The notes under the pieces are model-generated. The model was given only the letters and a program-made list of their open reading frames with translations, had not been told where the DNA came from and did not search any database. The translations under genes and the position numbers were made by a program. This document shows positions 39,036 to 55,742 of a stretch of 64,000 nucleotides of DNA, piece after piece. How positions within the stretch are numbered: position 1 is the stretch's first letter; the number at the start of each line of letters is the position of its first letter. This stretch comes from Escherichia coli. GTDB taxonomy: Bacteria > Pseudomonadota > Gammaproteobacteria > Enterobacterales > Enterobacteriaceae. The DNA is taken from assembly GCF_003334315.1 (NCBI RefSeq), contig NZ_QOWR01000004.1. One strand, 5' to 3'.

Positions 39036-39054
39036 GAATATGATTGCTATTTGC
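39036..39054 (+). promoter_or_regulatory. Fur-box-like sequence in tonB promoter
   Basis: GAATATGATTGCTATTTGC resembles Fur consensus GATAATGATAATCATTATC; position approximate. Confidence 0.45.
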
Positions 39055-39101
39055 ATTTAAAATCGAGACCTGGTTTTTCTACTGAAATGATTATGACTTC
39101 A

Positions 39102-39821
39102 ATGACCCTTGATTTACCTCGCCGCTTCCCCTGGCCGACGTTACTTTCGGTCTGCATTCATGGTGCTGTTGTGGCGGGTCTGCTCTATACCTCGGTACAT
39201 CAGGTTATTGAACTACCTGCGCCTGCGCAGCCGATTTCTGTCACGATGGTTACGCCTGCTGATCTCGAACCGCCACAAGCCGTTCAGCCGCCACCGGAGC
39301 CGGTGGTAGAGCCAGAACCGGAACCTGAGCCGATCCCCGAACCGCCAAAAGAAGCACCGGTGGTCATTGAAAAGCCGAAGCCGAAACCTAAGCCAAAACC
39401 GAAGCCGGTGAAAAAGGTACAGGAGCAGCCAAAACGCGATGTCAAACCCGTAGAGTCGCGTCCGGCATCACCGTTTGAAAATACGGCACCGGCACGCCCG
39501 ACATCAAGTACAGCAACGGCTGCAACCAGCAAGCCGGTTACCAGTGTGGCTTCAGGACCACGCGCATTAAGCCGTAATCAGCCGCAGTATCCGGCACGAG
39601 CACAGGCATTGCGCATTGAAGGGCAGGTTAAAGTTAAATTTGACGTCACGCCGGATGGTCGCGTGGATAACGTACAAATCCTCTCAGCCAAGCCTGCGAA
39701 CATGTTTGAGCGTGAGGTGAAAAATGCGATGCGCAGATGGCGTTATGAGCCGGGTAAGCCAGGCAGTGGGATTGTGGTGAATATCCTGTTTAAAATTAAC
39801 GGCACCACCGAAATTCAGTAA
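39102..39821 (+). CDS. tonB: energy transducer TonB
   Basis: 239 codons from ATG 39102 (MTLDLPRRFPWPTLLSV...), Pro-rich (EP)n/(KP)n spacer; track ORF 5'-extended. Confidence 0.96.
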   Translation: MTLDLPRRFPWPTLLSVCIHGAVVAGLLYTSVHQVIELPAPAQPISVTMVTPADLEPPQAVQPPPEPVVEPEPEPEPIPEPPKEAPVVIEKPKPKPKPKPKPVKKVQEQPKRDVKPVESRPASPFENTAPARPTSSTATAATSKPVTSVASGPRALSRNQPQYPARAQALRIEGQVKVKFDVTPDGRVDNVQILSAKPANMFEREVKNAMRRWRYEPGKPGSGIVVNILFKINGTTEIQ

Positions 39822-39828
39822 GCAGAAA

Positions 39829-39858
39829 GTCAAAAGCCTCCGATCGGAGGCTTTTGAC
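39829..39858. terminator. bidirectional terminator between tonB and yciA
   Basis: perfect palindrome GTCAAAAGCCTCCGATCGGAGGCTTTTGAC. Confidence 0.85.
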
Positions 39859-39860
39859 TA

Positions 39861-40259
39861 TTACTCAACAGGTAAGGCGCGAGGTTTTCCTTCAGGATCA
39901 ACCGCGACATACTTAAATAATGCTTCTGTCGCTTTATACCGTTGCCCGATTGGTTCAGACGCTACTTTTTTCACCCACACTTCAATATTAATGCTGACCG
40001 ATGTCGTCCCTTTCTGGACACAGCGTGCATAGCAGCACACCACATCGCCGACCGCAACCGGCCGTAAGAAAGTCATTCCTTCAACCCGCACAGTCACTAC
40101 GCGACCGTGGGCAATTTCTTTTGCCAGAATAGCGCCGCCAATATCCATTTGTGACATTAACCAACCACCAAAGATGTCACCATTGGCATTGGTATCGGCG
40201 GGCATGGCTAAAGTACGTAAAACAAGATCGCCCTGAGGGACGTTATGTGTTGTAGACAT
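39861..40259 (-). CDS. yciA: acyl-CoA thioesterase YciA (hotdog fold)
   Basis: 132-aa ORF. Confidence 0.93.
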   Translation of the reverse strand: MSTTHNVPQGDLVLRTLAMPADTNANGDIFGGWLMSQMDIGGAILAKEIAHGRVVTVRVEGMTFLRPVAVGDVVCCYARCVQKGTTSVSINIEVWVKKVASEPIGQRYKATEALFKYVAVDPEGKPRALPVE

Positions 40260-52731: not shown

Positions 52732-52758
52732 CAAATTGCGTTCCATGGATGGAAGACT

Positions 52759-54654
52759 ATGGCAGGGAAGTTTCGCTGCATTTTGCTGTTGATAGCAGGG
52801 CTGTTTGTATCATCTCTAAGTTATGCAGAAAACACGGAGATCCCTTCTTATGAAGAAGGGATCTCGCTCTTTGATGTTGAAGCCACTCTGCAACCAGATG
52901 GGGTGCTCGACATCAAAGAAAATATTCATTTTCAGGCGCGAAATCAGCAGATTAAGCACGGCTTTTATCGTGATTTACCACGACTCTGGATGCAGCCTGA
53001 TGGGGACGCTGCACTGCTGAACTATCATATTGTTGGCGTCACCCGTGATGGTATTCCTGAACCCTGGCATCTTGACTGGCATATCGGGTTAATGAGTATT
53101 GTCGTGGGCGATAAACAACGTTTCTTGCCTCAAGGCGACTATCATTATCAAATTCATTATCAGGTTAAAAATGCTTTCCTGCGTGAGGGGGATTCTGATC
53201 TGCTAATCTGGAACGTGACCGGTAACCACTGGCCGTTTGAAATTTATAAGACCCGTTTTTCTCTCCAGTTCTCTAATATTGCGGGTAATCCATTTAGCGA
53301 AATCGATCTCTTTACCGGAGAAGAGGGCGACACATATCGTAATGGCCGCATCCTTGAGGACGGAAGAATTGAATCCCGCGATCCGTTTTATCGTGAAGAT
53401 TTCACGGTCCTCTACCGCTGGCCTCACGCTTTACTTAGCAATGCCTCGGCTCCGCAAACGACGAATATTTTCAGCCATCTTCTTTTACCCTCCACGTCAT
53501 CGTTGTTAATTTGGTTTCCGTGTCTGTTCCTGGTTTGTGGATGGTTATATCTCTGGAAGCGCAGGCCGCAATTTACGCCGGTAGATGTGATTGAAACCGA
53601 TGTCATTCCGCCAGATTACACGCCCGGCATGTTACGTCTCGATGCGAAGCTAGTTTACGACGATAAAGGTTTTTGTGCCGATATCGTAAATCTGATTGTG
53701 AAAGGAAAAATTCATCTGGAAGATCAGTCTGACAAGAACCAGCAAATCCTGATTCGTGTTAATGAAGGCGCGACCAGAAATAATGCGGTATTACTGCCCG
53801 CAGAGCAGTTATTACTGGAAGCGTTATTTCGTAAAGGCGATAAGGTCGTTCTTACGGGGAGACGCAACAGAGTCTTACGCAGGGCATTTTTACGGATGCA
53901 GAAATTTTATCTGCCGCGTAAAAAGTCTTCGTTTTACCGGTCTGATACTTTTTTGCAATGGGGTGGACTGGCAATATTGGCGGTCATTCTTTACGGTAAC
54001 TTGAGTCCTGTAGGCTGGGCAGGAATGAGTCTGGTGGGCGATATGTTTATTATGATCTGCTGGATTATTCCTTTTTTATTTTGTTCCCTTGAGCTTTTGT
54101 TTGCCCGCGATGATGACAAGCCTTGCGTTAATCGTGTAATCATCACTTTGTTTTTACCACTGATTTGTTCAGGCGTGGCCTTCTATTCTCTCTACATCAA
54201 TGTCGGAGATGTATTCTTTTACTGGTATATGCCAGCGGGTTATTTTACCGCTGTTTTCCTGACCGGTTATCTCACTGGCATGGGGTATATTTTTCTGCCA
54301 AAGTTTACCCAAACTGGACAGCAACGTTATGCCCACGGTGAAGCTATCGTTAACTATCTTGCGCGTAAAGAGGCGGCAACACACAGTGGGCGGCGTCGGA
54401 AAGGGGAAACACGGAAACTGGATTATGCGTTGCTAGGTTGGGCGGTCTCGGCAAACCTTGGCAGAGAATGGGCAGCACGTATCACCCCATCACTCACAGC
54501 GGCTGTTCGCGCCCCGGAAATTGCCCGTAGCGGCGTTTTATTCTCATTACAGACGCACCTAAGTTGCGGGGCCTATACCAGTTTGTTGGGGCGAAGTTAT
54601 TCCGGTGGTGGTGCTGGCGGCGGCGCGGGTGGCGGAGGCGGTGGTGGCTGGTAA
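52759..54654 (+). CDS. yciQ: DUF2207-type membrane protein YciQ with Gly-rich C-terminal tail
   Basis: 631-aa ORF, N-terminal signal/TM, several TM segments, ends GGGAGGGAGGGGGGGW. Confidence 0.9.
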   Translation: MAGKFRCILLLIAGLFVSSLSYAENTEIPSYEEGISLFDVEATLQPDGVLDIKENIHFQARNQQIKHGFYRDLPRLWMQPDGDAALLNYHIVGVTRDGIPEPWHLDWHIGLMSIVVGDKQRFLPQGDYHYQIHYQVKNAFLREGDSDLLIWNVTGNHWPFEIYKTRFSLQFSNIAGNPFSEIDLFTGEEGDTYRNGRILEDGRIESRDPFYREDFTVLYRWPHALLSNASAPQTTNIFSHLLLPSTSSLLIWFPCLFLVCGWLYLWKRRPQFTPVDVIETDVIPPDYTPGMLRLDAKLVYDDKGFCADIVNLIVKGKIHLEDQSDKNQQILIRVNEGATRNNAVLLPAEQLLLEALFRKGDKVVLTGRRNRVLRRAFLRMQKFYLPRKKSSFYRSDTFLQWGGLAILAVILYGNLSPVGWAGMSLVGDMFIMICWIIPFLFCSLELLFARDDDKPCVNRVIITLFLPLICSGVAFYSLYINVGDVFFYWYMPAGYFTAVFLTGYLTGMGYIFLPKFTQTGQQRYAHGEAIVNYLARKEAATHSGRRRKGETRKLDYALLGWAVSANLGREWAARITPSLTAAVRAPEIARSGVLFSLQTHLSCGAYTSLLGRSYSGGGAGGGAGGGGGGGW

Positions 54655-54783
54655 TTAAGCTGATGTTAATCGAAACAAGCTTTAACCATAAAGATAGTGT
54701 AGTATGTTGCGCCTCAAAGCCAGGCCAGTTAAAACGTCGAGTCGTTTACTTAAGGCCTGAGGAGTTCAAACAGACTTTACTAT

Positions 54784-54814
54784 CAGTGAGTCAGATGTAA
54801 GTTCTGACTCACTG
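54784..54814. other. perfect 12-bp inverted repeat CAGTGAGTCAGA-N7-TCTGACTCACTG
   Basis: seen directly between yciQ stop and rluB start; not followed by a T-run on either strand. Confidence 0.6.
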
Positions 54815-54866
54815 TTGCACAAAAGCATATCAGACGCCTGGGAAGGCGACACCAAAAGGAAGCTCT

Positions 54867-55742
54867 ATGAGCGAAAAGCTACAGAAAGTGCTGGCGCGTG
54901 CCGGCCACGGTTCTCGCCGTGAAATCGAATCTATTATTGAAGCCGGTCGTGTGAGTGTTGATGGCAAAATTGCTAAACTCGGCGATCGCGTTGAAGTTAC
55001 CCCTGGATTGAAAATCCGTATCGATGGTCACCTTATTTCGGTACGTGAGTCCGCTGAACAAATTTGTCGCGTTCTGGCTTATTACAAACCGGAAGGTGAG
55101 TTGTGTACCCGTAACGATCCGGAAGGGCGTCCGACGGTGTTTGACCGTCTGCCAAAGCTGCGTGGCGCACGCTGGATTGCCGTAGGTCGTCTGGACGTTA
55201 ACACCTGTGGTCTGCTGCTGTTCACCACTGACGGTGAACTGGCAAACCGTTTAATGCATCCAAGCCGTGAAGTTGAACGTGAATACGCCGTGCGTGTATT
55301 TGGTCAGGTTGACGACGCGAAACTGCGTGATTTGAGTCGTGGCGTGCAACTGGAAGATGGTCCGGCAGCTTTTAAAACCATCAAGTTCAGCGGCGGCGAA
55401 GGGATCAACCAGTGGTACAACGTTACTCTGACCGAAGGCCGTAACCGTGAAGTTCGTCGTCTGTGGGAAGCGGTTGGTGTGCAGGTCAGCCGCCTGATCC
55501 GTGTTCGTTACGGTGATATCCCACTGCCAAAAGGTCTGCCACGCGGTGGCTGGACGGAGCTGGACCTCGCCCAGACTAACTATCTGCGCGAACTGGTGGA
55601 GCTACCGCCAGAAACCAGCTCTAAAGTCGCTGTAGAAAAAGACCGTCGTCGCATGAAGGCGAATCAGATTCGTCGTGCGGTGAAACGTCACAGTCAGGTG
55701 AGCGGCGGTCGTCGTTCTGGCGGACGTAATAATAACGGTTAA
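54867..55742 (+). CDS. rluB: 23S rRNA pseudouridine synthase RluB
   Basis: 291-aa ORF with S4 domain and RsuA-family catalytic region, Arg/Gly-rich tail. Confidence 0.95.

Follow-up and report, generated by a model that had tools for sequence, protein, structure and literature searches.

The spacer between yciQ and rluB of E. coli contains a palindrome, and this raises the question whether the palindrome acts in the DNA or in the RNA and, if in the RNA, whether it ends a transcript, marks a processing site or forms a structural part of the rluB leader. The analysis covered a stretch of 64 kb, referred to as the window, in which a perfect 12-bp inverted repeat with a 7-nt spacer, CAGTGAGTCAGA-TGTAAGT-TCTGACTCACTG, was confirmed at positions 54784-54814, its arms being 100% complementary. 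According to ORF calls and the RefSeq annotation of identical E. coli DNA and of K-12, it is flanked by yciQ (52759-54654, + strand), encoding a DUF2207 membrane protein, and by the 291-aa open reading frame of rluB (54867-55742, + strand). The distance from the end of the stem to the rluB ATG at 54867 is 52 nt, which agrees with the original prediction that had placed the repeat about 50 bp upstream of rluB. The strong hairpin claimed there was found as well: the stem of 12 bp, 6 of them G-C pairs, folds as RNA with -20.1 kcal/mol (z = -5.4 vs dinucleotide shuffles). First-order Markov simulations and an analytic estimate give an expectation of 0.02-0.03 perfect 12-bp inverted repeats with loops of 3-10 nt per 64 kb. 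Allowing up to three mismatches, the pattern is present in one copy in the 64-kb window and in none of 100 shuffles. Moreover, a search for the palindrome elsewhere in the genome returned one place per genome in 3,977 of 3,977 carrier E. coli genomes, i.e., it is a single-copy element. Another inverted repeat, with perfect 13-bp arms around a 3-nt spacer, GAGATCCCTTCTT-ATG-AAGAAGGGATCTC, is located in the coding sequence of yciQ (52837-52865), about 80 nt past the start codon; it is identical in K-12 and its chance improbability equals that of the palindrome upstream of rluB.

The palindrome is transcribed as part of the rluB mRNA. Published SMRT-Cappable-seq data contain a primary transcript on the forward strand running from 1326700 to 1327761 of K-12, which covers gene b1269 (rluB) only, with 37 reads at the transcription start site (TSS) and 18 of them ending at the termination site; full-length reads begin at 1,326,700, cross the hairpin and extend up to the rluB terminator (Yan et al. 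2018, PMC6131387). Mapped via the K-12 sequence, position 1,326,700 is a C, 8 nt past a TAGTAT motif, and corresponds to window position 54713 on the + strand. The palindrome therefore comprises +72 to +102 of a 154-nt 5' UTR, the rluB ATG being located at +155 and the published primary 5' end 71 nt upstream of the hairpin. The Cappable-seq supplement has no entry at the rluB start, and the TSS is based on one dataset with 37 reads. The SMRT-Cappable-seq study lists another start for rluB at K-12 1,326,297 in the 3' part of yciQ, i.e., at about 54312 of the window by offset, with small indels ignored (PMC6131387).

The TAGTAT motif at 54700-54705 (+ strand) is a -10-like hexamer that is followed by a GC-rich discriminator, GTTGCGCC, and ends 8 nt upstream of the TSS. 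A sigma-70 consensus scan of 54300-55300 called no promoter on the + strand, because the -35 region is poor; the assignment of the rluB promoter is thus based on the published TSS and on cross-genus conservation. A block GTGTA..AT....GCC upstream of rluB is conserved in 11 of the 12 long-leader loci searched, and loci with a shorter leader contain a related block composed of TATACT and ACGCGGCC.

Folding of the whole leader on the + strand resulted in three hairpins. Hairpin P1 (54721-54759), in which AGGCC...GGCCU encloses AAACG...CGUUU, is present in the minimum free energy (MFE) and the centroid folds; its sequence is specific for Escherichia, it holds most of the variation within this genus and it is missing from the cross-genus consensus structure. 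The palindrome forms stem-loop P2 (54784-54814, 12 bp with a 7-nt loop), which likewise appears in both the MFE and the centroid fold of the whole leader and is supported by its stability, G·U variants, covariation and its single-copy occurrence. It is followed by a single-stranded linker, UUGCACAAAAGCAUAUCA (54815-54832), containing the block AAAGYAUAYCA that is conserved in the alignments, by hairpin P3, GACGCCUGGGAAGGCGAC (54833-54850), and by the Shine-Dalgarno sequence AAGGAAG with the rluB start codon (54856-54869; sequence and RefSeq). P3 consists of five pairs closed by a GNRA-type loop, GGGA or GUGA; it is near-invariant across genera, paired in nine of nine sequences essentially without variation, and common to the E. 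coli allele that lacks yciQ. Nothing is annotated at the palindrome in RefSeq genomes, and Rfam returned no family match at 54300-55300, the three snoRNA hits being noise (13-16 bits vs gathering scores of 49-90). The hairpin and the rluB leader are therefore unannotated in RefSeq and absent from Rfam, no paper describing them was found, and in kind the element is a structured 5'-UTR stem-loop.

The region downstream of P2 is conspicuous in its own right. The stretch 54833-54866, i.e., the hairpin GACGCCUG(G/U)GAAGGCGAC followed by ACACC..AAGGAAGCUCNAUG, is near-invariant in every rluB leader examined, including the short-leader and the Cronobacter types, and it is far more conserved than the rest of the spacer. 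Judged from this conservation, it is a candidate translational operator or enhancer. A CsrA-type reading, with GGA presented in the P3 loop, was rejected on inspection, since most genera have GUGA at this place and the motif thus lacks conservation. A search for the P3 core in viral contigs gave nothing useful.

As P2 is located between the end of a gene and the next ribosome-binding site, termination was considered. The original prediction was right in stating that there is no U-tract on either strand: the stem is followed by TTGCACAAAAGC on the + strand and by ATAGTAAAGTCT on the - strand, and the tail UUGCACAA contains two U in the first 8 nt after the E. coli stem. A consensus terminator scan of 54300-55300 found none on either strand. 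In Term-seq data the 3' end of rluB is present at 1,327,761, and none is listed at or after the hairpin, near K-12 1,326,799-1,326,810 (Adams et al. 2021, PMC7815308). No + strand 3' end is listed between 1,310,519 and 1,327,761, and the 3'-end data contain neither a yciQ end nor an end in the rluB 5' UTR (PMC7815308); this negative result is bounded by the detection thresholds and the low expression of yciQ. With neither a U-tract nor a consensus match nor a Term-seq 3' end, the statement that P2 is not a canonical intrinsic terminator is upheld for E. coli. Further upstream, a bicyclomycin-sensitive and hence Rho-dependent site was mapped at K-12 1,325,258 inside yciQ, about 53271 of the window by offset, with small indels ignored (PMC7815308). 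Compared with the annotated rnm-yciO-yciQ unit, the operon starting from rnm (yciV) carries the flag 'ShorterEnd' in published data. Taken together, the Rho site, this flag and the start at 1,326,297 point to weak transcription of yciQ under laboratory conditions and to two promoters for rluB.

A further bicyclomycin-sensitive site lies on the minus strand at K-12 1,326,939 (window about 54954), antisense to the 5' part of rluB (Adams et al. 2021, PMC7815308), and the promoter scan detected a minus-strand sigma-70-like site at 54961-54933. The antisense site may reflect a Rho-suppressed antisense transcript, which would read back through the leader. As an example of a regular terminator in the same window, the perfect 13-14 bp palindrome AGTCAAAAGCCTCC-GATC-GGAGGCTTTTGACT at 39828-39859, located between convergent ORFs (39051-39821, + strand; 39861-40259, - strand), is an ordinary bidirectional intrinsic terminator.

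Within E. coli, 3,977 of 5,426 complete genomes contain a single copy of the 41 nt around the palindrome; 2,645 of these copies are identical and 1,332 carry one mismatch. In about 940 other genomes the match is confined to the last ~45 nt before rluB. These genomes are devoid of yciQ; yciO is followed ~100 bp later by rluB, and the different, shorter leader has its own unrelated hairpin, AAUGGCGC-N6-GCGCCAUU, before homology resumes at window position 54833. About a quarter of the E. coli genomes are without the palindrome hairpin. Thus, yciQ and the palindrome-bearing long rluB leader are co-inherited as a presence/absence haplotype in E. coli (window 52732-54832 vs L001 2935-3000, L001 being a locus of the short type). 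What the two haplotypes have in common is limited to the yciO stop codon at the left end and the sequence from GACGCCTG.. onward at the right end. The GC content of yciQ is about 45% vs about 52% in the flanks, and a search of genome contigs with YciQ returned matches in two sister Escherichia species only.

The sequence variation among carriers was surveyed in 73 Escherichia sequences, comprising genomes and 66 metagenome contigs. There are four substitutions in the arms: C29T, which is common, C21T in Escherichia sp. MOD1-EC7003, A6G in E. whittamii, and T20C. The first three create a G·U pair if the RNA is transcribed from the + strand and an A·C mismatch if it is - strand RNA. T20C opens the loop-closing pair alone and was seen once, in a contig of 0.4x coverage; two further changes fall in the loop. 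The leader diverges by 5.2% from E. whittamii and by 1.9% from MOD1, whereas four-fold degenerate sites of yciO, yciQ and rluB diverge by 17-29% and 11-21%, respectively, i.e., the leader diverges 3-6 times slower than synonymous sites. As judged from these divergences, the rluB leader is under purifying selection.

The loop of P2 contains an AUG-UAA start-stop pair (54795-54800), which is in frame with rluB 24 codons downstream; translation from this AUG is unlikely because there is no Shine-Dalgarno sequence. In E. whittamii (L008 4946-5983) the UAA is changed to UAC, resulting in a mechanical 345-aa ORF that runs from upstream of the TSS into rluB. A leader peptide or upstream ORF was rejected on inspection, as the leader offers just a four-codon GUG..UAA in the stem and the AUG-UAA in the loop, with neither a Shine-Dalgarno sequence nor conservation.

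The comparison was extended to enterobacterial contigs around RluB orthologues (L076-L090), in which the genera of metagenomic loci are putative. Conservation of the palindrome in related genomes, on which the original prediction had been made to depend, was found in the form of the helix, which is conserved across several enterobacterial genera. A homologous P2 helix with homologous flanks is present in four loci: AACAAUGAG-N13-CUCAUUGUU in L078, which is probably Klebsiella, CAGCGAG-N14-CUCGUUG in L082/83, CAGUAGGUUAGUU-N6-AACUAACUUACUG in L087, and CAGUGAGUUGA-N13-UUAACUCAUUG in L089/90, the loop of the latter retaining UGUAAGU. The changes in the arms are compensated. The third pair is G-C in E. 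coli, G·U in the E. coli C29T variant, L082 and L089, and A-U in L078; the fourth pair is U-A or C-G, and the fifth pair G-C or A-U. On a MAFFT alignment, 98.9% of the cells of the 12-pair helix are paired vs 27-52% with the 3' partner slid. Both sides are changed in 6 of the 12 pairs, and the covariation score is 0.357 vs 0.221 in shuffled alignments. None of 500 shuffles scored as high; as the alignment comprises 8-9 sequences, 3-4 of them from close Escherichia relatives, this count is not to be read as a probability. RNAalifold, applied to nine complete leaders with no structure supplied, predicted exactly two helices, P2 and P3, and in this alignment Salmonella and L079 also fall into register. 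These comparisons, unambiguous in direction, argue for selection for RNA pairing on the rluB-sense strand across several enterobacterial genera. Together with the mapped 5' end upstream of the hairpin, this covariation supports the suggestion in the original prediction that the palindrome is a structure in the rluB leader.

The geometry of the helix is variable. In other genera the stem has 7-11 bp with large loops, a perfect duplex of 12-13 bp is found in Escherichia and L087, and loop lengths range from 6 to 16 nt. In every rluB leader that was folded, P3 is preceded at a distance of 7-18 nt by a hairpin of -7.6 to -21 kcal/mol. L082/83 and L089/90 have five U in the first 8 nt of the tail vs two in E. 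coli. TTTTT directly follows the stem in three lineages, L082/83, L089/90 and the truncated L088, and Salmonella has UGUUUU; the positions matching this U5 tract read UUUCAU in L078 and UUGCAC in Escherichia. A consensus terminator scan of the orthologous loci called no hairpin, because their loops of 13-16 nt are outside its reach. The distribution of the U-tracts suggests, as a hypothesis, that the ancestral element was attenuator-like and that Escherichia lost the U-tract while the stem was lengthened to 12 perfect pairs.

Upstream of rluB nearly all loci follow a common plan: a -10-like hexamer with a GC-rich discriminator, one or more variable hairpins, the invariant hairpin, the Shine-Dalgarno sequence and ATG; the -10/discriminator block is not evident in L084/85 or L086. 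This bears on the origin of the palindrome. An initial reading had taken yciQ and the spacer as a simple insertion that brought the palindrome along. It was rejected as promoter, P2 and P3 are homologous to those of rluB leaders in genera without yciQ; the palindrome is thus a component of the rluB leader rather than of yciQ.

Across Enterobacteriaceae, the junction between yciO and rluB serves as a slot for changing cargo. No cargo is present in C. koseri, L080 and Cronobacter; the slot is occupied by an OprB-family porin gene in Salmonella and L086, by EamA and a LysR regulator in L078, by an alpha/beta hydrolase gene in L082, by a TonB-dependent receptor gene in L084/85 and by yciQ in Escherichia. 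The cargo is located upstream of the rluB promoter wherever the promoter is recognisable. In several non-Escherichia leaders a 7-bp inverted repeat, ATTCGTG-N15-CACGAAT, brackets the -10 hexamer and the start site (L076 ~2345-2375, L087 ~165-195, L089 ~445-475, L082/L083 ~1455-1490). It is compensated in L082 (ATTCATGT...ACATGAAAT) with a G·T intermediate in L083, and E. coli is without it (GATAGTG...CTCAAAG). This repeat could be a repressor operator or form a hairpin in read-through transcripts.

The following course of events would account for these observations. Transcription would start at 54713 from the promoter with the TAGTAT -10 hexamer and the GC-rich discriminator, and the nascent leader would fold into P1, P2 and, next to the Shine-Dalgarno sequence, P3. 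P2 would represent an autonomous structural module that probably descended from an attenuator-type hairpin, since several orthologues still have a U5 tail; in Escherichia the U-tract would have been lost and the stem would have grown to 12 perfect pairs. Most likely, P2 influences what becomes of the leader RNA by obstructing ribonucleases or the loading of Rho along the long untranslated leader, rather than by ending transcription or covering the ribosome-binding site. Overall, we consider it probable, with the mechanism as the inferred part, that the palindrome is the template of P2 in the 154-nt rluB leader, that P2 is descended from an attenuator and that it serves as a barrier affecting the fate of the rluB mRNA. 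P2 tolerates alterations of its sequence and of the lengths of stem and loop, which speaks more for a generic structural role than for a specific protein site. A role as mask or insulator of the ribosome-binding site was rejected: the region from the Shine-Dalgarno sequence to the AUG has a predicted unpaired probability of 0.52 in the wild type; complementing or shuffling either arm gives 0.48-0.52, and restoring or deleting P2 gives 0.52. Breaking or deleting P2 thus leaves the accessibility of the ribosome-binding site almost unchanged, and no mechanism is therefore positively indicated by these predictions.

The main rival to the barrier role is a factor-binding regulatory hairpin, i.e., P2 as recognition site of a trans-acting factor such as an RNA-binding protein, possibly RluB itself via its S4 domain, or an sRNA, with P2 and the invariant P3 forming a regulatory leader that tunes rluB to the demand of ribosome biogenesis. 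The conservation of the whole leader, including the single-stranded ACUUUAC and AAAGYAUAYCA and the invariant GNRA hairpin beside the Shine-Dalgarno sequence, the partial conservation of the outer stem CAGYGAG and, in L089, of the loop motif UGUAAGU are consistent with such a site, and the GC-rich discriminator fits growth-rate-controlled genes. GC-rich discriminators are linked to stringent control. However, the loop differs greatly from genus to genus in length (6-16 nt) and sequence, as would not usually be expected of a specific protein site, mimicry of the RluB substrate, helix 93 of 23S rRNA, is marginal and not conserved in other genera, and no paper was found that links rluB to Hfq, ProQ, CsrA or RNase III. 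We therefore regard a trans-acting factor at P2 as unlikely, though worth keeping in view. The mimicry was assessed against 23S 2588-2606 and rejected: the best match is located in P1 and not in P2 (score 17, shuffle p = 0.037), a score as high is reached by 7.7% of 23S windows, and the match is missing from 8 other leaders. Within P1, UUAAAACGUCG (54730-54748) matches 23S rRNA 2584-2594 (UUAGAACGUCG, the 5' strand of helix 93, the RluB substrate) in 10 of 11 nt; being marginal and absent from other genera, this match is probably due to chance. That P2 is a working terminator or attenuator in E. coli despite the missing U-tract, ending yciQ transcripts or stopping rluB transcripts prematurely, appears still more doubtful: a strong hairpin between a gene end and the next ribosome-binding site and the T-runs after the orthologous hairpins in L082/83, L089/90, L088 and Salmonella speak for it, but the two U in 8 nt past the stem, the missing consensus match and Term-seq 3' end, the full-length reads crossing the hairpin up to the rluB terminator, the retention of the helix in loci without yciQ and the apparent Rho-dependent stop of transcripts entering yciQ within that gene all speak against it.

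The remaining readings are regarded as less likely. Endonucleolytic processing, by RNase III on the duplex or by RNase E in the AU-rich linker after it, would yield a shorter rluB mRNA and could make use of the perfect 12-13 bp duplex in Escherichia and L087 as well as of the conserved AU-rich single-stranded linker between the two hairpins. The stems of 7-11 bp with large loops in other genera are, however, too short for a conserved RNase III substrate, and the main text of an in vivo RNase III target study does not mention rluB, making processing quite improbable. A double-stranded DNA operator at which a dimeric transcription factor would act as roadblock at +72 to +102 would match the perfect dyad symmetry in E. 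coli, yet every common variant breaks the symmetry of the DNA and keeps the RNA pairing via G·U, across genera the sequence of the half-sites and the spacing of the arms (6 to 16 nt) change with complementarity kept, and neither the window nor E. coli genomes contain a further copy of the pattern, which leaves no regulon. The protein-binding palindrome that had been offered as one option is thus unsupported at the DNA level, because the sequence drifts while complementarity stays and the intermediates are G·U pairs, and we regard an operator as very improbable. Finally, the presence or absence of the segment among E. coli strains might reflect a chance palindrome or a functionless relic of a mobile or repeated REP/MITE-like element that arrived with yciQ. 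We give this the least credence, as 0.02-0.03 such repeats are expected per window, every carrier genome has a single copy, and covariation in genera without yciQ as well as a leader that diverges 3-6 times slower than synonymous sites contradict it.

The preferred reading, P2 as a structural barrier in the leader, can be placed among known systems. Like leader attenuators and intrinsic terminators in 5' UTRs, P2 is a stable stem-loop between a mapped promoter and a ribosome-binding site, and several orthologous P2 hairpins precede a run of five U; the trp leader provides such an attenuator for comparison in the same window, and 5'-UTR 3' ends have been catalogued (Adams et al. 2021, PMC7815308). 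Unlike attenuators, E. coli P2 has no U-tract, Term-seq 3' end, leader peptide or evident antiterminator, and the U-tailed orthologues have loops of 13-16 nt and fail the consensus scan. The hairpins of the ompA 5' UTR are stabilising or obstacle stem-loops, and such structures hinder 5'-end-dependent scanning by RNase E. P2 resembles them in being autonomous, tolerant in sequence and selected for pairing and in having no predicted effect on the accessibility of the ribosome-binding site. However, the classical ompA stabiliser has to be placed at the very 5' end, and P2 has an internal position (+72). The S4/alpha-operon, L20 and L1 leaders are autoregulatory ribosomal protein leaders mimicking rRNA. 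The rluB leader is similar in that it is conserved and structured and precedes a ribosome-biogenesis gene, the product of which is an rRNA-binding S4-domain protein (RluB homologues contain the S4 domain, Pfam PF01479), but it shows no convincing likeness to helix 93 and no match to an Rfam family. With REP/BIME palindromes P2 shares the nature of an imperfectly conserved intergenic palindrome downstream of a gene that can form an RNA hairpin; it differs from them by its single copy per genome and by being part of one particular conserved leader, with homologues at the corresponding locus of other genera.

As a summary, a formerly anonymous palindrome is now defined, and accessible to tests, as a stem-loop that shows covariation and has a constant position within the conserved and unannotated leader of rluB. 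Nature provides experiments in the form of two E. coli leader haplotypes, with and without yciQ and P2, and of orthologues with and without the U-tract. If the leader is not regulatory, P2 would constitute a well-documented structural 5'-UTR hairpin and a warning against reading palindromes without U-tract as terminators or operators. To our knowledge, almost nothing is known about the regulation of genes for rRNA-modification enzymes. Tentatively, and with more doubt than confidence, the rluB leader with its covarying P2, invariant P3 and single-stranded blocks may be proposed as an undescribed cis-regulatory RNA family of Enterobacteriaceae, which would act by attenuation in lineages with the U5 tail and in a factor-dependent manner in Escherichia. 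If the leader is regulatory, it would represent a new leader RNA family, and it would couple a 23S rRNA pseudouridine synthase to the status of ribosome biogenesis.
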